Assembly (NCBI RefSeq): GCF_044704955.1
Contig: NC_091977.1
Span: forward strand, 418,810,001 to 418,874,000
Direction: 5' to 3'
Source of the DNA: Pristiophorus japonicus
Lineage: Eukaryota
Length of the DNA stretch: 64,000 nt
Position 1 is the first letter of the stretch, and the number at the start of each line of letters is the position of its first letter. Both the position numbers and the translations under genes were made by a program. Below, piece after piece: positions 1,811 to 61,879 of this stretch. The notes below the pieces were generated by a model. It did no database searches. It was not told the origin of the DNA and saw only the letters and a program-made list of their open reading frames with translations.

Positions 1811-2029
1811 GGAGTGAATGGTCAGAAATAACGTTGCCTCCAACAAGGGTGGTCAGTGTGAAAGGAATTGCTTGACCATTGTAGGAATGCTTTATGATGT
1901 TGCTGTGGGCTGGTGCCACACTTGTGCAGCATCTGGCAGCTATGTGGGTGTAATGCGTAAAGGTAAATAAATCTGGCCATGATGAGCCCATCCTTGGCCT
2001 CGCAGGCAGCAGTGTGCTCAGGTGCTGGT

Positions 2030-3195
2030 GGGATCTGGACTGCAGATTCCTCTTGCTCCTCCTCCTCCTCATCTTCCAGCTGATGCTCCTCCTGCTCCTC
2101 CTCTGAAGAAGAAGAATCTGTGCACTCAGTGCGTTGTTCCTCATGCAGCACTAATTCTCACTGCTGTGCTATGATGTGCAGGATGCAGCAGATCACAGCG
2201 ATTCTGGAGACCCTGGCTGGTGCATATTGAAGGGCTCCTCCAGATCTGTCAAGGCATCTGAAGCACATTTTCAGTATGCCTATTTTTTGCTCTATGACAC
2301 ATCTGGTGGAAATGTGGCTTTCATTATATCTCTACTCGGCCTCAGTACTTGGCCTCCTCAAAGGTGGCATGAGCCATTCTTCAGTGAATGGCTCTTGTCT
2401 CCATGCAGTCAGCAGTAAAGTCTATTTGGAGGAGTGAAGAGCTGAGGGAGTGCGGACTGGCACAGAATGAAGGAGTCATGGCAGGGAATTTTACGCACAC
2501 ATGCCTGATGATCTTCCTATGGTTAAAGACGAGCTGCACATTGAGGGACTGGAAGCCCTTGGTGTTTAGACAGTGATGCCTGGGTAACGATGAGATGCCC
2601 TGATGGCCACATGTGTGCTGTCGATGACGCCCTGCACCTGTGGGAAGCCAGCCAGAGTAGCAAAGCTGAATGACCACTCAGTAACGCTGACTTCATCAGC
2701 AGCAATGTTGATATAATTGGCTGACTTGTCAAAGAGGGCATTGGTGACCTGTGTGATGCATCAGTGAGTGGCCGACTGTGAGATGTCGCAAATGTCAGCT
2801 GCAGATCCCTGGAAGGAGCCTGAGGTGAAGAAGTTGAAGGTGTTGGTAACTTTGACAGCCACTGGTAAGACATATCCACCCGATCCGCTGGGCTGCAGGT
2901 CTTGCTCCAGCAATGTACAAATGTCTGCGATGACCTGGCACAATAGCCTGAGCCTCCTTTTGCACTGCTGCTCAGTCATGTTGAGGAAGCTTATCTTCTG
3001 CCTGTATACCCTGTGTTGTGGTATCATGTCTGGCATGATGCAGCATCAGGTGGTTGAGAACAATGTTGGTCATCAGGTGGTTGAAAAGAATGTTGGTGTT
3101 GTTGTTGGTGCTGCTCATGTGCCTGGTGCTGCTGGTTGGATCTCATCGTTGTCCCATTCTGAGGACCAAGGTGAGTCAGTATAAATGGCATCCAT
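2030..3195 (-). pseudogene. Harbinger (HARBI1-like) DDE transposase, frameshifted
   Basis: [47 protein letters not shown] and GFPQVQGVIDSTHVAI motifs, plus an acidic C-terminal tail. Confidence 0.85.
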
Positions 3196-3347
3196 GTTGA
3201 TGGAATAGATGACAGGTAAAGCAAAGGTGACCGAAGTAACCTGTCAATGATGTGATAGGTTCTACCTATGAAGTGACAGTGGATGCCGACTTTCTGGAAA
3301 CACTTGCAACCTCTAGAAAGCTAAATCTGTGCTGACAATACCGTCAG

Positions 3348-6300
3348 TATAATATGGTAATGCAGCCATTGCTGTTTACAACAATAAAGAGGGAACAGTT
3401 CACCTGACAGTTTCCTGAAATTATCATCCATCTTAGAGCCTGTGTGTTTGTGAAGTTGTACAGAAGATATCACGTTGGTGATGAGGTTAGGATTTCTGGA
3501 TAACCTAGCTGAAATTTTTGTTGGAGATTGATTCAGCCAACTGACAGAGAGACTTTGAAAACTTCTTTGTTTGCAGAACAGCTAAAAATCCAAGGTAAAT
3601 TATAAGCATACTTGGCTGAACTGAAGAGTCCAGATGGCTGTGCATATGGGAATAATAAAACGCTCAGGGGAATTCCATCATGACCGTGAAAGTTTTCGAA
3701 TGTATGTGGAGCGACTAGAAATGTTTTTCACCACGAATAGTATTATCGAAGTCCCCGATGATGAAAACCGTAACCGGTTGGTGTTGGAAAGAAAACAGGC
3801 TATATTCTTAACTGAAGCAAGCCCTGAGGTGTATGAAATCCTGAAAAATTTGCTTGTGCCAGTCAAGCCAAAGAACACATCACTTAATCAGATTCTAACT
3901 AAGTTAGAACAGCACTACAGTCCTTAGCCCCTGGAAATTGCTGAAAGTTATTGTTTCGGAATATGAGATTAGTTAACCGACGAAAATATCAGTGAGTACA
4001 TTGTAGCATTACAAAAAGGCTATCTATTCACTGTCATTTTGGAAACTTTCAGGACCGAGCATTGCATGACCACTTTGTTTGTGGGATGGAAAATGAAGCG
4101 ATCAGAAGAAAGTTGTTGACAACTCCTAACTTGACTTTTGATTTAGCTTGTCAGACAGCTATGTCAATGGATATGGCCAACCAATATTCCCGAGAATTTC
4201 GTACCATTTCATGAATCGCCTGCAGGTTAAAAGTAAAAGGCAGTTAGACACCAAGGCCTCAGAAACTGGCCAACGTAACAGTACATTGAAGTCGTACTAT
4301 CAGTGCCTGGGACAACACATTGCTCAAAGGTGTCCATATATGAAGGCAGTGTGTTTCTTCTGCAGGAAAACTCGGCATCTGGCGAAGGCATGCCGATTTG
4401 AAGAGTAAACCAACTTTCAATGTTATAAGTAGAAATCCACAGAGACTACGTATCATGGAAGAAAAGCAACAGGATGAACAGATGCACATCATCAGGAGCA
4501 CGAGGGTATTTAACAGCGATTCGAATAGTATCATCATCCAAGTAGATGTTGCAGGAACCAAGATACCTGTGGAAATCAACACTGGTGCATCTATGAGCAT
4601 AATACCAGAATCGCTATATCTCAACAAATTGTGTGATTTCTCATTGGAAAAATCCAAGATAGAGCTGTGAGGCTATTCAGGAGAGAACGTTCCTGTGGTA
4701 GGTCATATCACCATACCGGTGAAATATCACCATACCGGATCAATTTCAGAGATTACCTCTTAGTAGTGGCAGGAGATAAGCCTGTCTTACTAGGAAGAAA
4801 TTGGTTGGGATCACTGAAGCTGGATTGGAATGAGATTTTTCGTGTTGAAACGAGATTTGCATCAAAGTATGATGTCATCAAGAAGTATCCAAAGGTGTTC
4901 TGTGAAACAGGCAGTCCGATTCAAGGCTTCAAGGCGAATGTCAGGGTACAGAAGGACGCTAGACTGCAAGCAATGTCCCGTACCATGTGCACTCAAGGAG
5001 AAAGTTGAGCAAGAACTCAAAAGACTAGAGACTGAGAACATTATCTCTAAGATAAATCTATGTAATTGGGCTACGCCCATAGTTGTACCAAAGTCGGAAG
5101 GTAAGGTAAGGTTCTGTGGTGATTATAAAGTAACCGTAAACTAGGTAATCTCCCCAATACATTGCCAAATGTAGAAGATTTGTTCACAACACTGACAGGT
5201 GGTCAGATCTCCTCAAAGTTGGATCTTACAAATGCCTACTTACAACTTGAACTAGATGAGGAGTCCAAGTCATGCTTGACTATAAATATTCATCTAGGCC
5301 TATATCAATTTATTAGGCTACCGTTTAGAGTGTCTTCGGCCCTCGCCATATTCCAAGAGGTGATGAACCAGATTTTGCAAGACATTGAAGGGGTAGTATG
5401 TTATTTAGATGACATAGTAATTTCAACAACAAACAGGCAAATCCATAATAAAATATTGAATGAAGTGCTCAACGGCTAGAGAAGCACAGAGTATGAGTGA
5501 TTGCTCACAAGTGTGAGTTATTTCAAAACTTAGTGGAGTACTTGGGACACAGAATGAGTAGACAAAGATGGTTTACATCCAACCATGGGAAAGCTGGATG
5601 CAATTAGAAATGCACCCACTTCCAAGAATGTCACTGAACTTCGATCATTTTTATTTCTTTTGAACTATTATGGGAAGTTCCTATCAAATTTGGCTACAGT
5701 GTTACATCCACTGAATGAACTATTGAAAAAACAGGTCCATTGGAAATGGTCAGAAAATGCGACACAGCATTCAAGGAGTGTAAAAGCCAATTGGTAGAGA
5801 ACACCATGTTAGTTCTCTATGGCGTATCTAAGGAGATCAAGTTAGCATGTGATGCCTCCCTGTATGGAGTTGGGACAGTGAACTCTCATGTACTACATAG
5901 TGGTGAGGAGAGACCAATTGCTTTTGCTTCACGCACTCTCAGTGCCAGTGAGTGTAATTATGTACAAATCGAAAGGGAAGCTTTGGCATTCATTTTTGGG
6001 GTCAAGAAGTTTCACAAATATTTGTATGGTTGTAAGTTTACCATCGTTATGGACCATAAGCCCCTGACAGCAATCCTCCATCCAAAATCCCCAGTTCCAA
6101 TATTAGCTGCAGCCCATATGCAGAGATGGGCTTTGATTTTGTCAGCATATACATATGATATTGAATACAGATGATCACAGTAATGCTGATGCCATGCCTA
6201 GATTGCCTTCCCCGTCACAAGTTACACCCAATAGTGAAGAAGTGTTCTACTTTTCATACATTGATGAACTTCCAGTCATAGCTGAAGAGATTGGTAGAGC

Positions 6301-7775
6301 AACCAAACGTGACCCAGTTATGTCAAAGGTATATTGCAAATGGCTGGCCAAACCAGGTATCAGAGAAAGATATTCATCCATTCTTCATTTGTAGGAATGA
6401 ATTATCAGTCGATAAAGATTGTATCATGTGGGTTGCAAGAATGGTTATGACAAATAAATTCAGGTCTAAATTATTAGGATATCTTCATGACCAGCACCTG
6501 GGAATTTGCTTGACCAAAAGTTTTGCACACAGTTACTTACGGTAGCCAGATCTAGATAAAGACATAGAGTAAGTCAGTGTATAACATGTCAATCGGTAAG
6601 CAAGAAACCACCATCAGTGCCATTACAGCCATGGAAATGGCCTCCCAGGGTGTGGCAAAGGTTACATATTGATTTTGCTGAGCCAGAAGGACAGCAATTG
6701 TTCATTGTGATTGATAGCCATTCGAAGTGGGTAGAGTTGTTTCCAATGCGGAAAATAACAAGTAAAACATTAGACATTGCAAAGATGATTTTCTTCATAT
6801 GGCCTCCCAAAAAAAAAATGTGTCTGATAATGGACCACAATTTTGTTCAGAAGAATTTTCATAGTCCACAAGAAAAAATGTTGTGAAACATACCATGGTT
6901 CCACCGTACAACCCTGCTTCAAATGGTGCAGCAGATCGCACAGTACAAATAGTAACACATGCCCTCATCAAACAGGCGTTGGATCCAAATCCAAAGAAAT
7001 GACAGTTGTCATTGGACCACAAATTGCCTAATTTTCTAATTACGTGTCGTTATACTCCTCATACAACTACTGGTAGAACATCAGCAGAGATGTTTCTCAA
7101 ATGACAGCCACGAACCAGATTCTCATTGTTAAAACCAAACTTGGCACAGTCCGTAGAAGGAAACAATTAAGACAGAAACAGAATCATGATGGATGTAGAG
7201 TAAAAAAGAGAAGTGAGAGGGAAGAACCATCACCATAAATGGTGAAAGTGGTTACCAGGAAGAGTGTTGAAGATATGTGGTCCTCGCACATATTTGGTCA
7301 AGATATTTGATCATGGAAAGGTTAGAATTTACGTCTGAGTCCGAGTCAGGCAGACATACAGTATGAAGTTGTAAAGAGTTCAAATGTAAATCAAGGCATC
7401 CCTTGGAGGATAACTTTCCTCAGGATCAGCCTCGAATGAGTCTAAGTTCTAGACCATGTTTGGGAAGTTCTTTTCTAGAGCGAAGATATCCTCTTCGAAA
7501 CAGAAAACGTGGTTAAGCTTGATTTGTAAATTAAGTCCATAATCTTTGTTATGTATAACCATGCAAGTTATATATGATGATTGTTTGTTGTAATTACTTC
7601 TTCATTAAGGAGGGAGAAGTGCAATATATATAAAGCTCCACCCAGTGGACTAGTGTGGTAATGCAGCCATTGCTGTTTACAACAATAAAGAGGGAACAGA
7701 TCACCTGACAGGTTCTTGAAGTTATCAGCCATCTTAGAGCCTGTATGTTTGTGAGGTTGTACAGAAGATATCACA
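3348..7775 (+). mobile_element. Gypsy LTR retrotransposon no. 1 (Mag-like), both LTRs present, coding region decayed
   Basis: LTRs at 3348-3474 (internally deleted) and 7620-7775. 5-bp TSD GTCAG at 3343-3347 and 7776-7780. PBS-like TGGTGATGAGG at 3476 (CpG-decayed TGGCGACGAGG, tRNA-Ser type). PPT AGGAGGGAGAAG at 7608-7619. Gag with two CCHC knuckles, protease (NTGAS), RT (YLDD), RNase H and integrase in PR-RT-RH-IN order. Confidence 0.93.
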
Positions 7776-7822
7776 GTCAGCAACAACATCTGCCTTAGGA
7801 ATGTGATCAGCTGTGAGGAGGG

Positions 7823-10800
7823 AGTCGACATGTACCCTAGACCACGGTTTGGAGGGCCAAGACCATAAACTTAGCGGTGCCCCCCTGGGTACATTGCTTA
7901 ACTGTGAGCATGTATTACATCTGTGAACGCAGGACTCTAAGTCCGCATTGATACCGGGCCACCACACGTGGGATCTGGCTATTGCTTTCATCATTACGAT
8001 GCCTGGGTGGGTACTGTGGAGGTCATTGCTGAAGGTGACTCTGCCCTTCTTGGGGACCACTATTCAATTGCCCCACAGAAGGCAGTCTGCCTGTATAGAC
8101 ATTTCATCTTTGTGCCACTTGAACGGCTTTGTCTCTTCCTGCATTTCCAGTGGGACACTGGACCAGCTTCCGTGAAGCACACAGCTTTTGATTAGAGATA
8201 ATAAGGGTCCTGGCTTGTACTGGTTTTGATCTGCCGGGCAGTGACGGACGATTGCTCACTCTCAATGCTTCCATAACCTTGGGTAGATCTGCGGGCTGCG
8301 TCATTTCCATCCCCGTGGTGGGCAATGGCAGCCTACTGAGAGCATCGGCGCAGTTTTCTGTGCCTGGCCTGTGGCGGATGGTGTAGTTGTATGTGGACAA
8401 CGTGAGCGCCCATCTCTGGATGCGGCCGATGCACTGGTATTTATCCCTTTACTCTTGGAAAACAGGGCAATAAGTGGCTTATGGTCAGTTTCCAATTCGA
8501 ATTTTAGCCCAAACAGGTATTGATGCATTTTCTTTACTCCATAGACACACGCTAACGCTTCTTTCTCAATCATGCTATTGGCTCTCTCAGCCATAGACAG
8601 ACTCCTGGATGCATAAGCAACTGGTTGCAGTTTCCCGAAATCATTAGCTTGTTGCTATACACACCCGACGCCATATGATGACTCATCACATGCTAGTACC
8701 AAACGCTTACATGGATCATACAACGCAAGCAATTTGTTTGAGCATAACAATTTTCTCGCATTTACAAAGGCATTTTCTTGGCTTTTGCCCTAAATCCATT
8801 CATTCCCTTTTCATAGTAAAACATGCAGTGGTTCTGAGACCCAGTAAGAAGTTACCAAAATAGTTAAGGAGTCCCAGAAATGAGCGCAGCTCCGTCATGT
8901 TCTGTGGCCTCGGTGCATTCTCGATTGCCTCCGTCTTCGCATTGGTGGGCTTGATGCCGTCTGCCGCAATCCTCCTCCCAGGAACTCCACTTCAGGTGCC
9001 AGGAAAACGTGCTTCAAGGGTTTTAACCTGAGCCTCACGTGGTTGAGTCAACTAAGAACCTCCCCCAGGTTATGCAGATGCTCGACTGTGTTCTGACCTG
9101 TGACCAAGATGTCGTCCTGGAAGACCATGGTGTACGGGATCGACTTCAGTAAGCTTTCCCTGTTTCTCTGGAATATCGCCGCCACCAATCGGATTCCAAA
9201 TGGGCATCTGTTATAAACAAAAAGACCTTTATGCGTGATGATGCAGGTGAGGCCCTTCGATGATTCCTCCAGTTCCTGCATCATGTAGGCTGAAGTCAGA
9301 TCCAGCTTCGTGAACATCTTTTCTTCCGCCAGCTTTGCAAAGAGGTCGTCGGCCTTTGGTAGTGGGTATTGGTCCTGCAGGGAGAAATGATTGATAGTTA
9401 CTTTGTAATCGCCACAGATTCTGACGGTGGCGTCTCCCTTGAGGACTGGGAAGATAGGACTGGCCCACTCATTGAACTCGATCGGGGAAATGATGCCCAC
9501 TCTTTGCAGCCAGTCTAGCTCAATATTTGCCCTTTCTCTCATCATGTACGGTACTGCTCTCACCTTGTGATGGATGGGTCGCGCCCCCGGAATTAGGCAG
9601 ATCTGCACTTCGGCGCCTTGGAATTTCCTGATGCCTGGCTCGAACAGCGAAGGAAATTTGTTTAAGACCTGGGCACACGAAGTGTCGTCAGTGGGCGATA
9701 GCGTAGTTCCAGCGTATCTTTCCCAGCCAGCTCCTGCCGAGCAGCGTGGGACCATCGCCCGGTACCACACAGAGTGGTAGCTTGTGCACCGGTCCATTGT
9801 AGGAGACCTTTACGGTAGCACTGCTGATTACAGGAATCAGTTCTTTTGTGTAAGGTCTTAGTTTCCTGCGAACTGGAGTTAAGACTGGCCTTGAGGCCTT
9901 GTTGCACCAGAACTTTTCGAAAGTCTTTTTGCCCATGATGGACTGGCTCACGCCGGTGTCCCGCTCCATTGACACCGGGAGTCCATTTAGTTCAACATTT
10001 AGCATTATCGGGGGAGAATTCGTGGTGAATGTGTGCATCCCATGTACCTCTGCCTCCTCTATCAGAGGTTCTGTTTCATCGTGATCCTCCACGGATCTGT
10101 CCTCCGCTGCAATGTGGTGGTTTGCAGGTTTAGCAGCCCTAGCAGCTCGCCTGCACACTCGTTGGAGGTGTCCCATTGTTCCACAGCCCTTGCAAATGTA
10201 TCCTTTGAATCGGCACGAATGGAAACGATGATCACCCCCGCAGTGCCAACAAGGTGTTAATGGCCTTGCATTCATCACCCTTGATGGTGGATTCTGAGAC
10301 ATCTGCAGACGTGTAGCTGCAGGCATGTGTGACCTGCCCTATACGTTAAAATTTGAAAACAACATCACTTTGTTCACAGTACTTGTAGCAGCACTTGTGT
10401 GCTGAGAGATTTGCTTCGTATTGTCACTGGTGGCAATGAACGTCTGGGCTATCGCTATGGCCTTACTCAAGGTTGAGGTCTCTGCAGTCAAAAGTTTGCG
10501 AAGTATGGTTTTGTGTCCAATGCCAAATACGAAAAATTCTCTGAGCTTGTGCTGCAAATTCGCAATGTTCTGCAAGGCTTCTTAGCTCGGTGACATAACT
10601 CACCACTTCCTGACCTTCAGAACTTTTGCAGGTGTAAAACCAGTACCTCACCATCAGAACGCTTTCCTGCGGGTTCAAATGCTCTCGGACCAGTGTGCAC
10701 AAATCATCATACGATTTCTCCGTGGGTTTCGCTTCAGTGAGCAAATTCTTGATGAGGCCATACGTTGGTGCCCCACAGACGGTGAGGAGGAACGCCCTTC

Positions 10801-12639: not shown

Positions 12640-13310
12640 GGGCCAAAAATTGCAATTGGAGATGTAACTCTGGAGTACACCTCCGACTGGCGAAAGAATT
12701 ACGAACCTACCTGCTGGCAAACTTGCAATCTGAGGCTGCGAGGTAGAGGGCAGCATAATGGGCCATGGATCCCGGGGGCGTAGGTGGCGCGGAAGCGGAC
12801 CTAGGATCACATGGGTCTGGTCCTCCAATCACACAGCAGAATTCCATTTAATCATTTCCAAAGGGAATCCTGTAATGAGATGTAATGGAATCCTGAAATC
12901 TGATCTAATTACACAATTGGAATGTTATTCATAATTACCTTTATTCCACCAACCTCACTAAAAATTTAATTTTTTGATAATTGTAGACATCATTAAAACT
13001 GTAATCTGGGCCAATATTTGCATAAACTTATTTGACAAAGTGTACGTGCATAATTTACGATATGAAAATGTTTAATTAATGGCTGGGATATTTGCATCAA
13101 CCATAATATTTCCGTGCGCAATTGCTGGCCAGTCGTTGGACAAATAGCCCAACTCTGTCCTGGCGATTGGCTTTTCGTGACCCGCGTGGATGGCATTGAC
13201 AGGCCATAAGTTCCGGATTTCACGCATGTGCGAGAATTTCCAAACTTGCAGTGGATTTCAAAGAAAATACGGTGGTGTGTTGCCACCATACCAACAATAA
13301 AATCCAGGCC
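12640..13310. mobile_element. Possible decayed non-autonomous Harbinger-type element (MITE)
   Basis: CpG-richer block in AT-rich DNA with ends GGGCCAAAAATT...AAAATCCAGGCC that loosely resemble the other Harbinger TIRs here. The match is weak. Confidence 0.35.
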
Positions 13311-13364
13311 AATAATTTTAATTGATGCCAATTTTCTTCTCCGTTTTAGTTAACTAAATCAACA

Positions 13365-16121
13365 ATGACATAGATAGAAATAGGGATGAGGTCCTGCAGG
13401 CAGAGTTTAGGGAGCTAGGAGAGGAATTAAAAAGCAGGATTTCAAAGGTAGTAATTTCCGGATTAACCCCGGTGCCACGAGCTAGTGAGTACAGAAATAG
13501 GAGGATAGAGCAGATGAACACGTGGCTGGAGAGATGTTGCAGGCGGGAGGGCTTTAATTCCCTGAGGCATTGGGACCGCTTCTGGGGGAGATGGGACCTG
13601 TACAAGCCGGATGGGTTGCACCTCAACAAAGCTGGGACCAATATCCTCATGAGGGGGTTTCCTCGTGCTGTTGAGGAGGGTTTAAACTAGCTTGGTAGGG
13701 GGATGGAAACCTGAAAATAGATTCAGTAGGGAGAGGAGTAAAGCTGAAATTAGAAAGCAAAAATAACGAAAGTGAGTTTGAAGGAGAGAGGAAACAAGCA
13801 GGAAAAAAGGGTAAACAAATAAATTTAAAGGCTCTTTTTCTAAATGCACGTAGCATTCATAGCAAAATAGATGAACTGATGGCACAAATAGATACAAATC
13901 ATTATGATCTGATAGCCATTACAGAGACGTGGTTGCAAGGTGACCAGGACTGGGAACTAAATATTCAGGGGTATTTGACAATCCAGAAGGGATGGACAGA
14001 CAGAAAAAGGAGGTGGGGTAGCTCTGTTGACAAAGGATGGAATCACTGCAATAGTAAGAAATAATATTGGCTCAAGTGATCAGGATGTTGAAACAGTTTG
14101 GGTAGAGATATGGAATAATGGAAAAAGGTTACTGGTGGGCATAGTCTAGGCCCCCCTACAGTAGCAACTCTGTTGGTCGGTGTATAAACCGGGAAATAGT
14201 AGGGGCTTGTAAAAAGGGAACAGCAATAATCATGGGTGATTTTAACCTCCATATTGATTGGACAAATCTAATTGGTCTGGGTAGCCTTGAGGAAGAGTTC
14301 ATAGAGTGCATAAGGGATGGATTCCTTGAACAGTATGTAATGGAACCAACCAGGGGGCAGGCTATCTTAGATCAGGTCCTGTGTATTGTGACAGGATTAA
14401 TAAACAATCTCCTAGTAAAGGATCCCCTTGGAATGAGTGATCATAGCATGGTTCAATTTCAAATTCAGATGGAGGGTGAGAAAGTTTGATCTCAAACCAA
14501 CGTAATAAGTTCAAATAAAGGAGACTACAAAGGTATAAGGGCAGAGTTGGCTAAAGTGGAGTGGGAAACTAGATTAAAGGATAGGAGGTTTAAGGAGATA
14601 TATCTCAACTCTCAAGAAAAATATATTCCGTTGAAGAGGAAAGGGTGTAAAAGTAAAGAAAGCCATCCGTGGCTAACTAAAGAAATAAAGGAAATAATTA
14701 AAAACAAGGGCATATAAAGTAGCCAAAACTAATGGGAGGACAGAAGATTGGGAAGCTTTTAAAAGCCAGCAAAGAATGAGTAAAAAAAATGATTAAAGAA
14801 AGGGAAGATAGACTATGAAAATAAACTAGCACAAAATATAAAAACAGATAGCAAGAGTTTCTATAGGTCTATAAAAAGGTAAAGAGTGGCTAAAGTAAGT
14901 GTTGGTCCCTGAGAGGATGAGACCCGGGAATTAGCAATGGGGAACATGGAGATGGCAGAAACGCTGAACAAATAACTTGCATCAGTGTTTACGGTAGAGG
15001 ACACTAAAAATATCCCAACAGTGGATAGTCAAGGGGCTGGAGAGGGGTAGGAACTTAACACAATCACAATCACTAAGGAGTTGGTACTCAGTAAGGAAAT
15101 GGGACTAAAGGCGGATAAATCCCCTCGACCTGATGGCTTGCTTCCTAGGGTCTTAAGAAAAGTAGCGGCAGGGATAGTGGATGCATTGGTTGTAATTTAC
15201 CAACATTCCAATGATCTCTGGGGAGGTCCCAGCAGACTGGAAAACCGCAAATGTAACGCCCCTATTTAAAAAAGGAGGCAGACAAAAAGCAGAAAACTAT
15301 AGACCAGTTAGCTTAAAATTGTGGTTTGGAAAATGTTGGAGTCTATTATTAAAGAAGCAGTAGCAGAACATTTGGAAAAGCATAATTCAAACAAGCAGAG
15401 TCAGCATGGATTTATGAAGGGGAAGTCATGTTTGACAAATTGGTTGGAATTTTTTGAGGATGTAATGAACAGGGTGGATAAAGGGGAACCAGTGGGTGTG
15501 GTGTATTTGGACTTCCAGAAGGCATTTGACAAGGTGCCACTCAAAAGGTTACTGCACAAGATAAAAGTTCACGGGGTTGGGGGTAATGTATCAGCATCGA
15601 TAGAGGATTGGCTAATTAACAGAAAACAGAGAGTTGGGACAAATGGTTCATTCTCGGATTGGCAATCAGTAACCAGTGGGGTGCCACAGGGATCGGTGCT
15701 GGGACCCCAACTATTTACAATCTATATTAACAATTTGGATGAAAGGACCGAGTGTAACGTAGCCAAGTTTGCTGATGATAAAAAGATGGGAGGAAAAGCA
15801 ATGTGTGAGGAGGACACAAAAAATCTGCAAAAGGACACAGACAGGCTAAGTGAGTGGGCAAAAATTTGGCAGATGGAACATAATTTTGGAAAGTGTGAGG
15901 TTATGCACTTTGGCAGAAAAAATCAAAGAGCAAGTCATTATTTAAATGGAGAAAAATTGCAAAGTGCTGCAGTACAGCAGGAGGTGGGGGTACTTGTGCA
16001 TGAAACACAGAAGGTTAGTATGCAGGTACAGCAAGTGATCAGGAAGGCCAATGGATGCGGATGCAATGAGTCGAAATGGCCTCCTTCCATGCTGTAAATT
16101 TCTATGATTCTATGATTCTAT
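13365..16121 (+). mobile_element. CR1 LINE no. 1 (end of ORF1 esterase, ORF2 endonuclease and RT; abnormal 3' end)
   Basis: ORF1 SGNH end (YKPDGLHLN), APE motifs (ITETWL, MGDFN, SDH) and RT motifs (YLDFQKAFDKVP, GVPQGSVLGP, KFADD). Tail (ATTCTATG)n at about 16098-16121. Confidence 0.93.
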
Positions 16122-16661: not shown

Positions 16662-17014
16662 ACACACCAAGATGAAGACTGCTACCAATATCTATATTTT
16701 CAATCTTGCTGCAGCTGATGCTCTAGCAACAAGCACAATGCCTTTCCAGAGTGCTGACTATTTAATAGGGTCCTGGCCATTTGGAGATGTGCTGTGTAAA
16801 ATAGTGGTCTCCATTGATTATTATAACATGTTTACCAGCATTTTCACATTGACAATGATGAGTGTTGATCGATATATTGCTGTGTGCCATCCAGTGAAGG
16901 CATTGGACTTCCGCACTCCCTTGAAGGCAAAAGCAATAAATGTTTGCATCTGGCTCCTTGCCTCAGTTATTGGTATACCTGTTATAGTGCTGGGGGCCAC
17001 AGGAACGAGGGATG
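16662..17014 (+). CDS. OPRK1: Opioid receptor, kappa/nociceptin subgroup, coding exon 2 (ICL1 to start of ECL2)
   Basis: [54 protein letters not shown]. Acceptor tttccttttag ends at 16661 and donor GTGAGT starts at 17015, giving a 353-nt exon. By eye about 97 of 117 residues match human KOR as I recall its sequence. Symbol is best similarity only; OPRL1 orthology is not excluded. Confidence 0.9.
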
Positions 17015-20776: not shown

Positions 20777-21303
20777 GTATCGTTGAATGTGCGCTGCAGT
20801 TCCCACATCCCTACTGGTATTGGGACACTGTGCTGAAAGTCTGTGTTTTTGTCTTTGCCTTTGTCATACCAGTTCTCATCATCTCTGTATGCTACAGCTT
20901 GATGATCTTGCGTTTGAAGAGTGTGAGATTACTGTCTGGTTCCAGAGAGAAAGACAGAAACCTACGCCGAATCACACGGATGGTCCTTATTGTTGTCGCA
21001 GTTTTTATCATCTGTTGGACTCCCATTCACATTTTTGTATTAGTCAAAGCTTTAGTAAATGTCCCAGAAACCACTGCAGTATCTGCCTGCTATTATTTCT
21101 CAGTAGCTCTTGGATATACCAACAGCAGCCTTAACCCCATCCTCTATGCTTTTCTAGATGAAAATTTTAAAAGGTGCTTCAAAGATTTTTGCTGTTCCTC
21201 GGGGTTGAGGCTGGAGTTACAGACTAGCAACAGAGTAAGGAATACCACACAGAATGCGACATTGTTTCGCAATAGCATAGTGAATGCAAACCGGCAGGTA
21301 TGA
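20777..21303 (+). CDS. OPRK1: Opioid receptor, terminal coding exon (ECL2 to C-terminus)
   Basis: Acceptor ttttcttattcaacag ends at 20776 and is phase-compatible with exon 2 (RD-G-IVEC). Motifs [30 protein letters not shown] and [20 protein letters not shown]. Stop TGA at 21301-21303. Confidence 0.92.
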
Positions 21304-21390
21304 CTAGCAGTGGAAATGTCATCTTTCTCGCCGCAAGTGAGAGATGACGTTCAGGATTTAGGTCTGACTCAAATTACTTCTGCAGTTTAA
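21301..21390 (+). CDS. Stop-codon readthrough extension X-LAVEMSSFSPQVRDDVQDLGLTQITSAV
   Basis: TGA CTAG context, 28 sense codons, second stop TAA at 21388-21390. Resembles the readthrough extension described for mammalian OPRK1. Confidence 0.8.
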
Positions 21391-26399: not shown

Positions 26400-26742
26400 T
26401 CTCTCATTTGCTGAATCTTTTTAGAATCACAATTCTATTTCTTCCCATGTCATTGGCTCCATATTGAACCACAATTTCTGGCTGTTCCCATTCCTTCTTC
26501 AAAATGTTTGGCACCTAGTCTGTGATATCCTTTACCATGGCACATGGGAGGCAACATGTAATTTGGGAGCCTCTGTTGTGAAGGCAAGAATGCCTGTCTA
26601 TTTCCATAACTATGGAATCCCCATATTACTGCTGCATTTCTGTACTTTTCTCCACCCTCTTTGGCAAGCATATGTTCCATGGTGCCCTGGTTTTACTTGT
26701 GGTTGTTCAGCTCTGAGTTGTCAACATTGTCGAGGTACACAG
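26400..26742 (-). mobile_element. Old CR1 ORF1 (SGNH esterase) remnant, apparently continued at about 29703-29900 beyond the inserted CR1 no. 2
   Basis: Minus strand reads GDSIV...CCLPCAMVKDI...EQPEIVVQYGAND. 29790-29900 encodes LLEEQLSTLRLIQEAE, a zipper-like ORF1 segment. Confidence 0.55.
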
Positions 26743-29702
26743 AACGTGACAGGAAGGGACAGAATATATAAATATAAGAGTGTATCAGAAACTGGAGCCA
26801 TAGCAGGAGAAAATGGTAAGATAACACATTTAAAAGCTCTTTATCTGAATGCACGCAGCATTCGTAACAAATTAGATGAGCGGTCGGCACAAATAGTTAC
26901 AAATGGGTTTGATCTGGTAGCCATAACAGAGACGTTGTTGCAAGGTGACCAAAACTGGGAACTAAACATTCAGGGGTACTTGTCAATTCAGTAGGACAGA
27001 TAAAAAGGAAAATAAGGTGGTGTAGCTTTGTTGATAAAGGATGGAATTACTGTAATAGTAAGAAACGATATTGTCTCAAATGATCAGTATGTTGAAACAG
27101 ATTGGGTGGAGATAAGGAATAATAAGGGGAAAAAAGTCACTGGTGAGCATAGCCTACAGGCCCCCTAACAATAGTAACTATGTTGGTCGGAGCATAAACC
27201 AAGAAATAGTCGGGGCTTGTAAAAAGGGAACAGCAATAATCATGGGTGATTTGAACCTCCATATTGATTGGACAAATCTAATTGGTCAGGGTAGCCTTGA
27301 GGAAGAGTTCAGAGAGTGCATAAGGGACGGGATCCTTGAACAGTATGTAACGGAACCAATCAAGGGGCAGGCTATTTTAGATCTGGTCCTGTGTAATGAG
27401 ACAGGATTAATAGACAATCTCTTAGTAAAGGATCCCCTTGGAATGTGTGATCATAGCATGGTTGAATTTCAAATTCAGATGGAGGGTGAGAAAGTTGGAT
27501 CTCTAACCAGCGTACTAAGCTTAAATAAATCAGATTACAAAGGTATGAGGGCAGAGTTGGCTAAATTGAACTGGGAAAATAGATTAAAGTGTAGGACGGT
27601 TGATGAACAGTGGTGTACATTTAAGGAGATATTTCATAACTCTCAAGAAAAATATATTCCAGGTGAGGAGGAAATGGTGTAAAAGAAAAGATAACCATTC
27701 GTGGCTAACTAAAGAAATAAAGGATGATATCCAATTACAAACAAGGGCATACAAAGTGGCCAAAATTAGTGGGAGGACAGAAGATTGGGAAGCTTTTAAA
27801 AGCCAGCAAAGAATGACTAAAAAAATGATTAAGAAAGGGAAGACAGACTATGAAAGTAAACTAGCACGAAATATAAAAACATACAGCAAGAGTCACTACA
27901 GGTATATAAAAAGGAAAAGAATGGCTAAAGTAATTGTTGGTCCCTTAGAGGACGAGACCGGGGAATTAGTAATGGGGAACACGGAGATGGAAGAAACTCT
28001 GAACAAATATTTTGTATCAGTCTTTACGGTAGTGGACACTAAAAATACCCCAACAGTGGATAGACAAGGGGCTAAGGAGGTGGTACTCAGTAAGATAATG
28101 GAACTAAAGGCGGAAAAATCCCCTGGACCTAATGACTTGCATCCTAGGGTCTTAAGAGAAGTAGCAGCAGAGATAGTGGATGCATTGGTTGTAATTTAAC
28201 AACATTCTTTGGATTCTGCGGAGTACCAGCAGATTGGAAAACTGCAAATGTAATGCCCCTATTTAAAAAAAGAGGCAGACAAAAAGCAGGAAACTATAGA
28301 CCAGTTAGCCCAAAATTTGTGGTTGGGAAAATGTTGGAGTCCATTATTAAAGAAGCAGTAGCAGGACATTTGGAAAGGCATAATTCAGTCAGGCAGAGTC
28401 AGCATGGATTTATGAAGGGGAAGTCATGTTTGACAAATTTGCTGGAATTCTTTGAGGATGTAACAAACAGGATGGATAAAGGGGAACCAGTGTATATGGT
28501 GTATTTGGACTTCCAGAAGGCATTTGACAAGGTGCCACATAAAAGGTTACTGCACAAGATAAAAGTTCACGGGGTTGAGGGTAATATATTAGCATGGATA
28601 GATGATTGGCTAACTAACAGAAAGCAGAGAGTTGGGATAAATGGTTCATTCTCGGATTGGCAATCAGTAACTAGTGGGGTGCTGCAGGGATCAGTGCTGG
28701 GATCCCAAATATTTACAATCTATATTAACAACTTGGATGAAGGGACCGAGTATAACGTAGCCAAATTTGTTAACGATACAAAGATGGGAGGAAAAGCAAT
28801 GTGTGAGGAGGACACAAAAAATCTGGAAAAGGACATAGACAGGCTAAGTGAGTGGGCAAAAATTTGGCAGATGGAGTATAACGTTGGAAAGTGTGAGGTT
28901 ATGCACTTTGGCAGAAAAATATCAAAGAGCAAGTTATTATTCAAGTGGGGAAAAATTACAAAGTGCTGCAGTACAGCGGGACCTGGGGGTCCTGGTGTAT
29001 GAAACATAAAAGGTTAGTATGCAGGTACAGCAAGTGATCAGGAAGGCCAATGGCATTTTGGCCTTTATTTCAAAGGGGATGGAGTATAAAAGCAGGGAAA
29101 TCTTGGTACAGTTATACAGGGTATTGGTGAGGCCACACCTGGAATACTGTGTAGTTTTGGTTTCCATATTTAATAAAGGATATACTTGCTTTGGAGGCAG
29201 TTCAGAGAAGTCTCACTAGGTTGATTCTGGAGATGACGGGGTTGACTTATGAGGAAAGCTTGAGTAGGTTAGACCTCTACTCATTGGAATTCTGAAGAAT
29301 GAGAGTTGATCTTATCGCAACGTATAAGATTATGAGGGGGCTTGACAAGATGGATGCAGAGAGGATGTTTCCACTGATGGGGGAGACTAGAACTAGAGGG
29401 CATGATCGTAGAATAAGGGGCCGCCCATTTAAAACTGAGATGAGGAGAAATTTCTTCACACAGGGTTGTAAATTTGTGGAATTCGCTGCCTCAGAGAGCA
29501 ATGGAAACTGGGTCATTGATTACATTTAAGACAGAGATAGACAGTTTCTTAACCGATAAGAGAATAAGGGGTTACAGGGAACAGGCAGGGAAGTGGAACT
29601 GAGTCCTTGATCGTATCAGCCATGATCGTATTAAATGACGGAGCAGGTTCGAGGGGCTGTAAGGCCTACTTCTGCTCCTATTTCTTATGTTCTTATGTTC
29701 TT
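26743..29702 (+). mobile_element. CR1 LINE no. 2 (5'-truncated, ORF2 nearly complete but disrupted)
   Basis: LYLNARSIRNK, APE and RT motifs, C-terminal RGH..RRNFFTQ and tail (TTCTTATG)n. Possible TSD GT(A/G)CACAG at 26735-26742 and 29703-29710. Confidence 0.93.
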
Positions 29703-31571: not shown

Positions 31572-32790
31572 CATGGGGGCATTACTGACAAAGCCATAGC
31601 TTGTGCAAGCCTTCTGCATGATGGTGCTGTGGAGGAGGCAATTGATTCAACGTCATCGCATGAGGAACCTCAGCATATAAGGTGATGGGCAGGAGGCCTT
31701 ACCCACATCGGGTACATCGAGACAGGCGTTCGTACCTGCACCTGAATGATGCAGACTGTGTCAGAAGGCTGCGTTTCCACAAAGAAGTTGTAACTGAGAT
31801 CTGTGAGTTAGTAAAAGCAGACCTGCAACCTAGAAGCGTCAGGAGGACTGCTTTGTCAGTTAAAGTGAAGGTCACAGCTGCACTTTCATTCCATGCATCT
31901 GGATCATTCCAGGCCACAACTGGGGATGTATGCGCCATTTCTCAACATGCAACCCATATTTACATTTGGCAGGTGACTGCTGCACTATATGCCTGGAGGA
32001 ATGACTACATAAAGTTCCCCATGACCGCCCAGGCAATACGTGAAAAGGCTGTGGACTTCCCCAGGATTGCTGGCTTCCCAAAGGTACAGGGCTGCATTGA
32101 TTGTACCCACATTGCCTTGCGAGCACCTTTGGAGGATTCCGAGATGTACAGGAACAGAAAAGGCTTCCACTCCATCAATGTGTAGCTCATGTGTGACGAC
32201 ATGCATCGCATCATGTCAGTTGATGCAAGATACTCTGGGACCATCCATGATGCATTCATCCTATGCAAGAGCATTATATCGGCCATGTTTCAGCAGCAAC
32301 CAGAAGGGCAGAGCTGGCTACTGGGTGACTAAGGGTATGGCCTCGCCACCTGGCTCATGCCACCCCTACGCATAACCCAGATGGAAGCTGACCGGGAATG
32401 CAACAAGTCACCCATTGCAATGCGCAGCATAATAGAGAGGACCACGGTCATCTTGAAACAGCATTTCCGATGCCTGGATCATTCCCAAGGCTACTTGCAA
32501 TACTCCCGTGAGATTGTCGGTCAGTTCACTGTTGTCTGCTGCATGCTGCATAATTAGCCTTCATAAGGCAACAGCAGCTGGTAGTCTATGATCCACCTGA
32601 GGTGAGAGTGGCTGATGATGATAAGGAAAATGCAGATGATGGGGAGGAGGAGGAGGAGGACGAGGACAAGGAAGCCACGCAACTACCTGAACCCAGAGCA
32701 CAACGGCAGAGGAGGGCGGGCTGTCATGCCCCTTTAACGTTGCTCGAGCCTTGCACCAGAAGCTCATCTGTGAGTGCTTTGTTGCCTGAA
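31572..32790 (+). pseudogene. Harbinger (HARBI1-like) DDE transposase with premature stops
   Basis: RVHRDRRSYLHL..CVRRLRF, VKVTAALSFHASGSFQ, GFPKVQGCIDCTHIAL, NRKGFHSINV, GTIHDAFIL, WLLGD, RSIIERT, CCMLHN and an acidic tail. Confidence 0.92.
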
Positions 32791-33264: not shown

Positions 33265-34958
33265 TTATTTTAAGACCGCCCGCTGCGCTTGGTCTTGGGT
33301 GACTCCACCTGTGCCCGCAGGCGGTGGTGCAGCCTGTCTCAGGTTTGTACCAAGCTTATTCTTTTGAACAACTCGGGTAATGCACACTTCTTGATGGTGG
33401 GGGGGGGGAGGGGGGGCGAGGGCAGCAGAGCAGGTGGTGATGTGGAAGGCCTGTCTTGGGCCTCTTCTGACGCTGGTCTGGGGATTGGAGTGGGAGTGGC
33501 AGTTGATTCTGTCAATGGGCACAGGGTCTGGGCGTGTTCCCTTATTGCAGCAGCTATCTCCAACATTTCCTCCCTCATGTGCCCTGACAGTGTGTCAACA
33601 ACCACAACATTCCCTCCCTCATGTTCACCGACAGTGCCTCAGCTACCTGCGACATTCCCTCGCTCATGTGCACCGACATTGTTTCGGCTGACTGAGACAT
33701 TCCCTCCCTTATGTTCCCGGACAGTGTCCCATTTCTTGTGAGAGTGTTGTTACTTCTCCCGACAGTCCCAATACCTCATCACCCACCCCAATGATGGTGT
33801 CCAGGAGTGATCAGGTAAGGTCAATGCTCTCCGCACTCATTGCCATCATCTGAACCACATCTCTTAGATCCTGCACCTCAGGAGAGCACTGTCGATCTCA
33901 CCCTGGGTGTGGATCGCTGCATTCCAATGGAACCCTCAGCATCGGATGGTGGGACCCTGGGTGTGCCTCGCTGCACCCCACTGGAATTCCCAGCCTCGGA
34001 TGGTGGGAAACCATGGAATGTCCCAGCAACACTCAGGGAAGGGGTTGGCACCTCAATGGGCGGCACCTGCACCTCCTCCAGAATGGGGCCTTCATCCATC
34101 CCCTCCCCTCCCTCTCCTCCTCACCCCGATGCTCTTGGTCTGGAAGGTGGGATTGGAAGATGTTCTCCTCTTCAGGCTCATCCTCATCTGAATCTTCTTC
34201 TGCATTATCAGGGTTGGCCTCAAGTTCTGCAAAATTTAACAGAACAGACAAATGGTTAGCAGCAGAGGAGGGGGCAGGATCAGTGGCATGAGTAGGCTCA
34301 CACAGTGCAGGCAGCAAGCTGATTTGAAGAACAAAAAAACAGAAATGTAGATGACAAAGATATCCCCATGAACCGAAGCATGGCTAGCCCGCGCAGTACT
34401 TAACATTTAGCAAAGCCAGACTGTGGAATTTGCAAGGCTTACCCTCTCCCTCGAGTGTGGGCCCAGCTTGTGCAGTGGTGGTTGCTTTTCTCCAGGCAGG
34501 ACCCATCAAACCAGTGACCCTCTCTTCCAAGGCTGTCAGTGGCTGCAGATTTGCCGGGCCTCCTGCTGTTTGAGTTCTTTCTCGTTTGTTGTGTGCCACT
34601 TTCCTCTGCAAAGATGAAAACATGACTTTTTTTTAGAGAGGGTGTCTTTCTGCTGGGTGGGACATACAGCTGGTCACATTTACAATTGCAGTTCCATTGA
34701 ATAAATTAAAATATTACTTACACTAACTACTTGACCAAGGTCCTGCCATTTCTTTTTGCACTGGCCTCCAGACCTCAGGGTGGTCACCATTGCACAGTAA
34801 TCTTGGGCAAGTTGGTTCCAGTGTTTCTTCATTTCTTTTGATGGAACTTTTATGTAACCTCTGCTGGTGTCCAGCTCAAGCCAGCTGCTCTCAATCACAG
34901 TAACTAGTGCCTTCACTTCATCCTGTAAGAAATTCTTGGTCCTTGCGCCACATTGCAT
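33265..34958 (-). pseudogene. Harbinger Myb/SANT-like gene, three exons
   Basis: ARTKNFLQDEVKALV..KKHWNQLA..RSGGQCKKKWQDL, donor GTAAGT near 34721. Exon 2 RKVAHNKRERTQTAGG follows tttgcag. Exon 3 starts acidic (ELEANPDNAEEDSDEDE) after ttttgcag. Confidence 0.85.
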
Positions 34959-35075
34959 CTTGTAATGCAGCTCCAATTTTTCCAATGAGAATTAAAGTGC
35001 TCACATACAACTGGCTCTTTAAAAATGGCCGAATGCACACCGGAAACTGTACTGGGCATGTGTGCCTATAGGAAT

Positions 35076-36552: not shown

Positions 36553-38835
36553 TTTTTTTTTAAATTAGTTCATGGGATGTGGGCATTGCCGGCAAGGCAA
36601 GCATTTATTGCTGTCTCTAATTGCCCTTGAGAAGATGGGGGTGAGCCACCTTCTTGAACTGCTGCAGTCTGTGTGCTGAAGGTACTCCCACAGTGCTATT
36701 AGGGAGGGAGTTCTAGGATTTTGAACCAGCGACGATGAAGGAACGGCGATATACTTCCAAGTCAGGATGGTGTGTGACTTGGAGGGGAATGTGGAGGTGA
36801 TGGTGTTGCCATGTGCCTGCTGCCCTTGTCCTTCTAGGTGGTAGAGGTCACAGGTTTGGGAGATGCTGCCGAAGAAGCCTTGGCAAGTTGCTGCAGTGCA
36901 TCTTGTAGATGGTACACACTGCAGCCACGATAAGCCAGTGAAGGAGGGAATGAATGTTTAAGGTGGCTGATGAGGTGCCAATCAAGCGGGCTGCTTTGTC
37001 CTGGATGGTGTCATGCTTCTTGAGTGCTTTGGAGCTGCACTCATCCAGGCAAGTGGAGAGTATTCCATCACGCTCCTAAATTGTGCCTGTGGAAAGGTTT
37101 TGGGGAGTCAGGAGGTGAGGCACGCGCCGAAGGATACCCAGCATCTAACCAGCTCTTGTTGCCATTTAAGTGGCTGGTCCAGTTAAGTTTCTGGTCAATG
37201 GTGACCGCCATGACATTGATGGTGGGGGATTCTGCAATGGTAATGCAATTGAATGTCAAGGGGTGGTAGTTAGACTCTCGCTTGTTGGAGATAGTCATTG
37301 CCTGGCACTTGTGTGATGCGTTTGTTACTTGCCACTTATCAGCCCAAGCCTGAATGTCATCCAGGTCTTGCTGCATGAGGGCATGGACTACTTCATTATC
37401 TGAGGAGTTGTGAATGGAACTGAACACTGTGCAGTCATCAGCAAACATCCCCACTTCTGACCTTATGATGGAGAGGTGGTCATTGATGAAGCATCTGAAG
37501 ATGGTTTGGCCTAGGACACTGCCCTGAGGAACTCCTGCAGCGATGTCCTGGGGCTGTAGTGATTGACCACAACCATCTTCCTTTGTGCTATGTATGACTC
37601 CAACCAGTGGAGTGCTTTCATCCTGAATCCCATTGACTACAGTTTTATTGGGGCTCCTTGATGCCACACTTGGTCAAATGCTGCCTTGATGTTAAGGGCA
37701 GTCACGCTCACTTCACCTCTGGAATTCAGCTCTTTTGTCCATGTTTGGGCCAAGGCTGTAGTGAGGTCTGGAGCCGAGTGGTCCTGGTGGAACTAACTGG
37801 GCATCGGTGAGCAGGTTATTGGTAAGTAAGTGCCGCTTGATAGCGCTGTCGATTACACCTTCTATCACTTTTCTGATGATTGAGAGTAGACTGATTGAGC
37901 TGTAATTGGCTGGATTGGATCTTTTCTGCTTTTTGTGAACAGGACATACCTGGGCTGTCTTCCACATTGTTGGGTAGATGCCAGTGTTGTAGCTGTACTG
38001 GAATAGCTTGACAAGAAGAACGGCTGGTTCTGGAGCACAAGTCTTCAACATGACAGCTGGGATGTTGTCGGGGTCCATAGCCTTTGCTGTATCCGGTGCG
38101 CTCAGCCATTTCTTGATATCACATGGAGTGAATCAAATAGGCTGAAGACTGGCTTCTGTGATGGTGGGGACCTCAGGAGGAGGCCGATATGGATCATCCA
38201 CTTGGTACTTCTGGCTGAAGATGGTTGCAAACGCTTCAACCTTGTCTTTTGCACTCATGTGCAGGGCTCCACAAACATTGAGGATGGGGATATTCATGGG
38301 GTCACATCCTCCTGTTAGTTGTTTAATGGTCCACCACCATTTACGATTGGATGTGGCATGTCTGCAGAGCTTTGATCTGGTCTGTTGATTGTGGGATCAC
38401 TTAGCCCTGTCTATGGCATGCTGCTTCCGCTTTTTAGCATGCATGTAGTCCTGTGTTGCAGCTTCCCCAGGTTGGCATCTCATTTTTAGGTACACCTGGT
38501 GCTGCTCCTGGCATGCTCTTCTACATTCTTCATTGAACCAGAGTTGGCTTGATGGTAATGGTGAGGGATAGGCCGGGCCATGAGTTACAGATTGTGATGG
38601 TATACAATGCTATTGTTGCTGATGACCCACAGTGCCTCATGGATTCCCAGTTTTGAGCTGCTAGATCTGTTCTGAATCTATCTTATTTAGCATTGTGGTA
38701 GTGCCACACAACACGATGGAGGGTTTCCTCAGTGTGAAGATGGGACTTCGTCCCCACAATGACTGTGTAGTGGTCACTGCTACTGAAGGTGTCATGGACA
38801 GATGCATCTGCGACAGGTAGATTGGTGAGGATGAG
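36553..38835 (-). mobile_element. CR1/Jockey-group LINE with poly(A) tail, 3' part (5' part resumes at about 53945)
   Basis: PDNIPAVMLKTCAPE, NPANY..ISLLS, GVPQGSVLG and MFADDC motifs. T-run at 36553-36561 is the poly(A). Sequence stops abruptly at an LTR end at 38836. Confidence 0.85.
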
Positions 38836-40508
38836 TGTAAGATTAGGATCACAGGTCACACACAGTTACCTAAAGGGTCCTAGGAGTCATGAGACATTTT
38901 ATTAAGGAGCAGTAGTTCATATATAGTTAAACACACAATCAGGATAGACATAGTAGGCATATGACCATGATAAGAGGCTGGTATTAGTCCCGATTGGACA
39001 GACGGCTGGTGGCACAAACAGCTCTTCTCTGCACCGTATGCTCTGAAAAGCACTTTAGATGTCTCTTTTATTGTCTATTTAGGGGTGGGTCGGGGGTAAA
39101 ATGATGGACAGGATCATTTAACGTATAAAACACTCTTCCCAAACCAAGGTGCCCAATGGCTGGTTGAGTTAAACATAAGAACATAAGAATTAGGAGCAGG
39201 TGTAGGCCATTCAGACCCTCAAGTCTGCTCCACCATTCAATTAGATCACGGCTGATCTTCTACCTCAACTTCACTTTCCTGCTCTATTCTTATATCTCTT
39301 GATTCCCTTAATATCCAAAAATCTGTTGAGCTCTGTCTTGAATATACTCGAAGACTGAGCCTCCACAGCCCTCTGGGGCAGATAATTCATGAGATTCACC
39401 ACCCTCTGAGTGAAGAAGTTTCTCCTCATCTCAGTCCTAAATGACCGACCACTTATTCTGAGACTGTGACCCCTGGTTGTAGACTCCTTAGCCAGAGGAA
39501 ACATCTTCCCTGCATCGACCCTGTCAAGCCCTGTAAGAATGTTGTGTGTTTCAATGAGATCAGCTCTCATTCTTCTAAACTCTAGAGAATATAGGCCTAG
39601 TCTACTCAATTTCTCCTCATAGGACAAGTCCCCCATCCCAAGAATCAGACTGGTGAATTTTCGTTGCACTCCCTCAATTGCAAGTAAATCTCTCCTTAAG
39701 TAAGGAGATCAAAACTGTACACAATACTCCAGGTGTGGTCTCACCAAGGCCCTGTATAATTGCAGTAAACCGACTTTACTCTTATGCTCAAATTCTCTTG
39801 TAACAAAGGCCAACATACCATTTGCTTTCTTAATTGCTTGCTGTACCTGCATGTTCACTTTCAGTGATTCGTGTACAAGCACATTCAGGTCCCTCTGAAC
39901 ACCAACACTTCCCAATCTGTCACCATTTAAAAAATACTGTGCTTTTCTATTTTTCCGACTGAAGTGGATAACTTCACATTTCTCCACATTAAATTCCATT
40001 TGTCATATTCTTTCCCACTCACTTAACCTGTCTATATCCCCTTGAAGTCTCTTTGCATCCTCCTCACAACTTACATTCCCACTTAACTTTTTGTCATTAA
40101 CAATCTGGGATGTATTACATTTGGTCCCTTCATCCAAATCATTGATATCGATTGTGAATAGCTGGGGCCCAAGCACCGATCCTTGTGGCACCCTACTAGT
40201 TATAGCCTGCCAACCTGAAAATGACCTGTTTATTCCTACTCTCTGCATTCTGTCCATTAACCAATCCTCAATCCATGCTATTATATTACCCCAATCCCAT
40301 GAGCCCTAATTTTGTTCAATAACCTCTTGTGTGGCACCTTATCGAATGCCTTCTGAAAATCCAAATACACCACATCCACTGGTCCCTCCTTATCTATTCT
40401 GCTAGTTACAACCTCAAAACTCTAACAGATTTGTCAAATATGATTTCCCTTTCATAAATCCACGTTGACTCTGCCCAATCCTATTATTATTTTTTAAGTG
40501 CCTGTTAC

Positions 40509-61677: not shown

Positions 61678-61879
61678 TGAGCCTCTCACTGGTCGTCCTA
61701 ACCCTTGTTTCTGTTCCAGACTTCCTCTCCTCCATAGCTGAATAAACCACATCCTTGGGGCAGGAAGAAAAATGCCAAGAACATGGCAGGAGAAAGGAAC
61801 AAGCAGACTTAGCTGTTTTCTGAGCTATCCTTATCTTATTGTTAACTAATGTATAGCATCGTCTAAAATTATTTAAACA

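Follow-up and report, generated by a model that had tools for sequence, protein, structure and literature searches.

Translation past the annotated stop codon is already known for two opioid receptor genes, OPRK1, which encodes the kappa receptor, and its paralogue OPRL1, which encodes the nociceptin receptor. In the OPRK1 genes treated by Loughran 2014 (PMC4132726), the UGA-CUAG context is universal, the last sense codon is predominantly GUA, the extension is almost always 28 residues long, and conservation is strongest at its C-terminus. OPRL1 has the same UGA-CUAG context and a related peptide end, L-T-Q-x-T, but is distinguished by a last codon that is predominantly GCA, an invariant GC at +5/+6, and a length of 28-34 residues. 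The main text of PMC4132726 traces OPRK1 readthrough to at least the ancestor that mammals share with bony fishes and infers that the ability is older than the duplication that gave OPRK1 and OPRL1, and the 2018 VDR paper describes the motif as conserved throughout vertebrates in these genes. For OPRM1 and OPRD1, according to PMC8159799, there have been no reports of readthrough.

The same motif and mechanism recur in AQP4 (as AQP4ex), MAPK10, MDH1 and LDHB, whose proteins and extensions are unrelated to those of the opioid receptors. The MDH1 and LDHB extensions are peroxisomal signals (2018 VDR paper), the AQP4 extension controls localisation in vivo (PMC6444679), and AQP4 readthrough is also kept as far as the cartilaginous fishes (PMC4132726). 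For the opioid receptor extensions, no demonstration of a function was found in the literature covered.

Published efficiencies differ among assays. Readthrough of human OPRK1 was about 13% in a fused reporter (PMC4132726), about 4-5% in another study, and 1-2% in the newest assay, which used a single-copy reporter and whose text gives 1.39% and elsewhere 1.9%; OPRL1 is much higher, at 6-31% across assays. Deletion of CUAG nearly abolished readthrough in human reporters, showing that the motif is needed, and 764 of the 765 motif variants scored across three genes in the newest assay lowered it. All human UGA-CUAG contexts tested in the 2018 VDR paper gave at least 1.3%, against 0.7% for UGA-C. 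The blots of the 2014 study failed to resolve the long form of full-length OPRK1 (PMC4132726). Also drawn on were PMC5513072, PMC8112862, PMC4973966, PMC12233894 and PMC5868278.

The gene described here adds a cartilaginous-fish member to this known mechanism. It lies in a 64-kb stretch of the genome of the sawshark Pristiophorus japonicus (hereafter the window), and its annotated stop codon is followed by an open frame that very probably encodes a conserved extension. Readthrough of a shark OPRK1 was found in no report within a literature made up mostly of non-subscription papers; a cartilaginous fish may already figure in the alignments that supplement Loughran 2014.

A kappa opioid receptor gene in the window

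On comparison of its sequence, the window carries the last two coding exons of the shark OPRK1 orthologue, encoding a receptor of the rhodopsin family (Table 1). A motif scan of the window for the first coding exon found none, and the ORFs of the window revealed no neighbouring host gene. Among named proteins the nearest is that of the shark Heptranchias perlo, with identity at 117 of 118 residues in the middle exon and 167 of 174 in the last exon. In the alignment, the annotated proteins of all seven chondrichthyan matches stop at the column of the terminal Val. The middle exon has the length of exon 2 of human OPRK1, 353 nt, as against 350 nt for OPRD1 in a published table. Among named teleost mu proteins, five of eight end in Q-Q-V at the column of the shark R-Q-V, and one more runs four residues past it.

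Because NCBI names for the six elasmobranch orthologues are split (three 'delta-type-like', three 'kappa-type') and the last exon alone scores equally against mu and kappa receptors (259.5 and 259.3 bits), the kappa identity was probed further. Exon 2 scores rank kappa first, and the full H. perlo protein, compared with solved structures, gives best scores of 536 bits for kappa, 505 for mu, 474 for delta and 436 for nociceptin. No protein named mu or nociceptin occurs among the best 120 of 949 protein matches. A tree was built from 36 of 147 named proteins, hand-picked for taxon spread, with a midpoint root and with the H. perlo orthologue representing the window's receptor. In this tree of kappa-like and mu rows, without delta or nociceptin rows, the seven chondrichthyan rows group together (98/93) next to 22 kappa rows from bony vertebrates (100/97) and at a distance from seven mu rows (100/100). 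In the tree alignment, the mu-like stretches of the shark protein (ECL2 and the end of TM6) are also found in the kappa receptors of lungfish, coelacanth and ray-finned fishes.

Many shark and teleost proteins entered at NCBI as 'delta-type opioid receptor' or '-like' group with kappa in the tree, and those names therefore look wrong. At the end of TM6 (I-F-V-L-V-K-A-L, in the region of 21055-21057), a Lys in the shark receptor replaces the Glu of tetrapod kappa receptors. Lys is found there in three sharks, a chimaera, lungfish, coelacanth and the ray-finned kappa rows, Glu in all eight tetrapod kappa rows, and Asp or Glu in the three rays and skates; across the 147 named proteins the count is 108 Lys and 31 Glu. 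This distribution suggests that the acidic residue arose separately in batoids and tetrapods. The Glu (6.58) is presumably the selectivity address for kappa antagonists.

Table 1. Features of the receptor gene, its stop codon region and the mobile-element-like sequences of the window
Feature	Position	Strand	Remarks
Middle coding exon, TM2-TM4, 353 nt	16662..17014	+	AG/GT bounded; 7tm_1 match
Last coding exon, ECL2-TM7 and cytoplasmic tail ending R-Q-V	20777..21303	+	Up to annotated stop
Splice-donor-like 9-mer CAG/GTATGA	21295..21303	+	Overlaps stop; 7/9 consensus matches
Last sense codon GTA (Val)	21298..21300	+	Codon typical for OPRK1 ahead of leaky stop
TGA stop with CTAG readthrough motif	21301..21307	+	TGA 21301-21303, CTAG 21304-21307
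28-codon extension, LAVEMSSFSPQVRDDVQDLGLTQITSAV	21304..21387	+	Open frame after TGA
In-frame ATG, extension codon 5	21316..21318	+	Also in human and mouse, where it starts the 24-aa 3'UTR ORFs
DLGLTQIT, unbroken 8-residue run	21355..21378	+	Identical in human and mouse (by eye)
T-S-A-V	21376..21387	+	Class I PDZ ligand pattern X-S/T-X-hydrophobic-COOH; human and mouse T-T-A-V
Second stop TAA	21388..21390	+	Closes extension frame
RVT_1 match	28148-29002		LINE-like fragment
LTR-retrotransposon-like element	40943-44654	+	RT, RNase H and integrase; two long overlapping ORFs
Zinc knuckle ORF	58685-59563	+	Retrovirus-like element
RNase H and integrase with MLV-type C-terminal domain	59947-61677	+	Retrovirus-like element
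ORFs without Pfam match	61976-62698, 62518-62916	+	Retrovirus-like element; at expected env place

Mobile-element-like sequences elsewhere in the window

An endogenous-retrovirus-like element occupies about 58300-62900 on the + strand in several separate ORFs, and fragments related to the LTR-retrotransposon-like element of Table 1 were recognised by eye near 3600-6900 (+) and 7700-10800 (-). LINE-like reverse transcriptase fragments, identified mostly by eye, lie at 13300-16100, 26400-29000, 37000-40300 and 45200-47800, one of them directly upstream of the receptor's middle exon. A Myb/SANT-like ORF (31664-32375, +) faces a transposase-like ORF that has no Pfam match (34680-34991, -), and a similar arrangement occurs near 950-3300; we take such facing pairs to be the arrangement of Harbinger DNA transposons.

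The stop codon and its context

Positions 21292-21310 read CGG CAG GTA TGA CTA GCA G, and the direct reading bears out what the sequence-only reading of this DNA had described, a TGA-CTAG after CAG GTA followed by 28 open codons and a TAA. With the recoded stop included, the long isoform would gain 29 residues. Four features given for OPRK1 in Loughran 2014 are all found in the shark gene (UGA, CUAG, a last codon GUA, and 28 residues), and those of OPRL1 are absent, with CA in place of GC at +5/+6 and GTA in place of GCA as the last codon.

Taken one by one, the single features of the stop and extension are weak or moderate evidence. TGACTAG occurs five times in the 64-kb window, counting both strands. 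Across 7,411 flanking non-coding positions, 19.6% open a frame of at least 28 codons (17-18% of random starts in a separate calculation), 1.0% a frame of exactly 28 codons, and 7.4% a frame whose end fits the class I PDZ pattern, while CTAG stands at the start of 14 (0.19%). Folding of the RNA around the stop, as a single sequence without an alignment, gave z -1.40, with 21 of 200 shuffles equally good; no stimulatory structure is prominent in this fold. No Rfam family lies over the stop, the one match in the search (E 0.67) being far away, and a tandem repeat search found none. It is the match to the mammalian peptide, described below, that takes the readthrough signal beyond chance. The first candidate poly(A) hexamers 3' of the second stop are ATTAAA at 21805 and AATAAA at 22128.

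The sequence-only reading had called UGA-CUAG the efficient vertebrate context, known for mammalian OPRK1 and OPRL1. The second part of that statement stands, and the first holds only in a relative sense, given the range of 1-2% to about 13% for human OPRK1. Compared with the human bases in a mutagenesis preprint (bioRxiv 10.64898/2026.07.14.738498), the window agrees in CUAG and at +9, +10, +14 and +15 and differs at +5 and +12. Published work links high readthrough to AA at -9/-8, C at -5 and C at +9; the window has none of these and carries G at -3 and a purine at -1. Efficiency in the shark could be below that of human OPRK1 because these enhancing bases are absent.

Conservation of the extension

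The conservation comparison sets one shark DNA sequence against human and mouse peptides at the protein level. The supplement of PMC4568590 gives 24-aa ORFs with an in-frame Met start in the human and mouse OPRK1 3'UTRs, and the human extension that the sequence-only reading had quoted agrees with this record from the Met onward. By eye and ungapped, the last 24 residues of the shark extension match the human peptide at 15 positions and the mouse peptide at 14, both alignments ending at a common stop and including the final A-V. At a per-site chance of 0.06-0.125, the binomial probability of at least 15 matches in 24 is 4e-13 to 1e-8. Five of the nine shark-human differences are conservative (by eye). 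The homology proposed for the two peptides is thus upheld, and so, as a sound inference from the shark-mammal match, is an origin before the split of cartilaginous and bony fishes, an age already implied in print by Loughran 2014 and the 2018 VDR paper.

Identity is distributed unevenly along the peptide. By eye, the last 11 residues are identical to human and mouse at ten positions, and the preceding 13 to human at five, so that conservation of the shark extension peaks near its C-terminus, in the manner described for OPRK1. As an internal control, the last 24 residues of the annotated tail match the receptor of the rodent Arvicanthis at ten positions, and those of the 22 kappa rows from bony vertebrates at 0-10. 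With 15 of 24 in the extension against 10 of 24 in the annotated tail, conservation is thus higher in the supposed UTR than in the adjoining coding tail. On this evidence the hidden peptide is very probably a coding extension under conservation, for which the best explanation is UGA-CUAG readthrough that would add 29 residues to the receptor.

The protein records searched are silent on the extension, as would be expected if annotation halts at the first stop. No 5-residue word of the extension occurs in any of the 147 named homologues, and a protein search with tail plus extension returned six matches among 80 candidates, all of them elasmobranch orthologues ending at the annotated stop. In the supplementary material consulted, an OPRK1 row is absent from two eLife 2014 files, and a search of the PMC4359377 supplement gave no matches.

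The S-P-Q at 21328-21336, positions 5-7 counted from the Met, is also seen by eye at positions 5-7 of the mouse OPRL1 3' ORF, which is 22 aa long, and the human and mouse OPRK1 peptides differ from it at these positions. The shark peptide may preserve the ancestral kappa/nociceptin extension, with S-P-Q as in OPRL1 and a C-terminus as in OPRK1; the S-P-Q match may be an ancestral trait or a chance match of three residues.

Alternative explanations

Two alternatives concern what the gene is and how its 3' end is processed. Readthrough could be real while the gene is another opioid paralogue, whether delta, nociceptin or a shark-specific copy. The 'delta-type-like' names on three of the six elasmobranch orthologues, the equal mu and kappa scores of the last exon, the restriction of the tree to kappa and mu rows, and the lack of an identified flanking gene for synteny all leave some room for this. 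It is nonetheless improbable: whole-protein and exon 2 scores put kappa first, the mu-like stretches recur in the kappa receptors of lungfish, coelacanth and ray-finned fishes, the best 120 of 949 matches contain no second kappa-like group of chondrichthyans, and the extension is far closer to the human and mouse OPRK1 peptides than to that of mouse OPRL1, whose invariant GC at +5/+6 the shark gene lacks. Still less probable, to the point of being barely credible, is that the CAG/GTATGA overlapping the stop acts as a splice donor and that, in the manner of the mammalian mu receptor, an exon further downstream supplies an alternative C-terminus. The 9-mer matches the consensus at seven of nine bases, the window's R-Q aligns with the H-Q of the mu receptor, whose mammalian splice donor presumably sits at the equivalent Gln, and five of eight named fish mu proteins end at Q-V here. 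An equal score, however, is reached by 146 of the 3,517 GT sites on the window's + strand (4.2%), Heterodontus and Callorhinchus have a Pro before the Val that is incompatible with CAG, and all seven chondrichthyan annotations end at this Val. Splicing at the stop would moreover delete the conserved peptide and not account for it.

The other alternatives accept the open frame and dispute its use. A separate 24-aa micropeptide, made by reinitiation at the ATG of extension codon 5 and unconnected to the receptor, would fit the Met common to shark, human and mouse and the conservation screen of PMC4568590, which lists the ORFs of human and mouse among its 3'UTR sORFs. The authors of that screen themselves state that the OPRK1 and OPRL1 cases are readthrough misclassed as sORFs, reporters without a downstream start codon still show CUAG-dependent readthrough, and CUAG and the open codons ahead of the Met would be left unexplained, all of which makes a micropeptide highly improbable. 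The stop might instead be leaky to no purpose, with trace or no readthrough in sharks; the peptide would then be a relic in slow decay, or would be retained for some reason at the level of the RNA. Sharks evolve slowly, several enhancing context bases are absent from the shark gene, and human OPRK1 reaches only 1-2% in one assay. Because of the conservation of the peptide, such a relic fits poorly: 15 of 24 identities, conservative changes and an exact length are kept across the shark-mammal distance where the adjoining annotated tail keeps 10 of 24, the single-sequence fold (z -1.40) is not unusually stable, and no Rfam family covers the stop. An idle stop is accordingly judged unlikely, though it is the least improbable of the four, and functional readthrough of the shark OPRK1 stop is the strongly favoured explanation.

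A possible role for the extended C-terminus

Under functional readthrough, most ribosomes would halt at the TGA at 21301 and yield a receptor ending in R-Q-V, of about 380 aa if the H. perlo orthologue is a guide. Termination would be weakened by the UGA-CUAG context, and in a few percent of cases the release factor would lose to a near-cognate tRNA, so that translation would run through 28 further codons to the TAA and yield a receptor longer by 29 residues. The residue inserted at UGA by a near-cognate tRNA is Trp, Arg or Cys. That the same readthrough takes place in shark neurons is carried over from human reporters, and for shark cells it is an inference. Selection on the amino acids, mostly the last 11, would keep the extension, and its most likely job would be that of a docking end, the putative class I PDZ ligand T-S-A-V together with the extra Ser/Thr, through which the placement or recycling of the long form would come to differ from that of the short one.

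The sequence-only reading had proposed that the longer isoform gains Ser/Thr sites and a class I PDZ-type end, S-A-V, in place of R-Q-V. Both are borne out as facts of sequence, with T-S-A-V fitting the pattern (human OPRK1 ends in T-A-V) and Ser/Thr making up six of the 28 residues; binding and phosphorylation are predictions from them. By the definition in PMC3653948, T-S-A-V is a predicted class I ligand, and the class I pattern is found at the annotated C-terminus of none of the 119 named proteins scanned. In PMC3653948 the control without a PDZ ligand was the annotated tail of human kappa, and it did not recruit PSD-95. The same short tail is elsewhere said to engage the PDZ protein NHERF1/EBP50, and the change brought by readthrough may therefore be one of partner and not a step from none to one. 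Against a clean PDZ switch stands the ease with which the pattern arises by chance (7.4% of random frames). PMC4132726 points to conserved Ser/Thr residues in the extensions, with possible roles in desensitisation, and PDZ binding goes unmentioned in the portion of that paper covered; no PDZ-binding test of the OPRK1 extension was found in a literature made up mostly of non-subscription papers.

PDZ docking and phosphorylation of the long form are thus speculative. A PDZ docking role for the extension, considered on its own and predicted from the peptide, is a tentative proposal, somewhat less probable than its absence. The wider proposal is a little more doubtful again: that since the first jawed vertebrates readthrough has acted as a docking switch of the kappa receptor, with a common form that lacks a class I PDZ ligand at its end and a minor long form tied through its conserved S/T-A-V to PSD-95/MAGUK-type or other PDZ scaffolds.

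Implications for the opioid receptor family

The shark gene shows directly, at the level of sequence, that the OPRK1 extension is present on both sides of the deepest split of the jawed vertebrates, and the residues that have lasted are the last 11. The surprise is modest, since readthrough itself is established. For the family, the question of what the opioid receptor extensions do narrows to whether the terminal peptide binds PDZ domains. As drug targets, kappa receptors are usually studied from cDNAs ending at the first stop, and with such cDNAs a scaffolded long form, if it exists, would have been missed. Were the docking switch true, there would be a small, separately placed pool of kappa receptors that is never made from standard cDNA clones.
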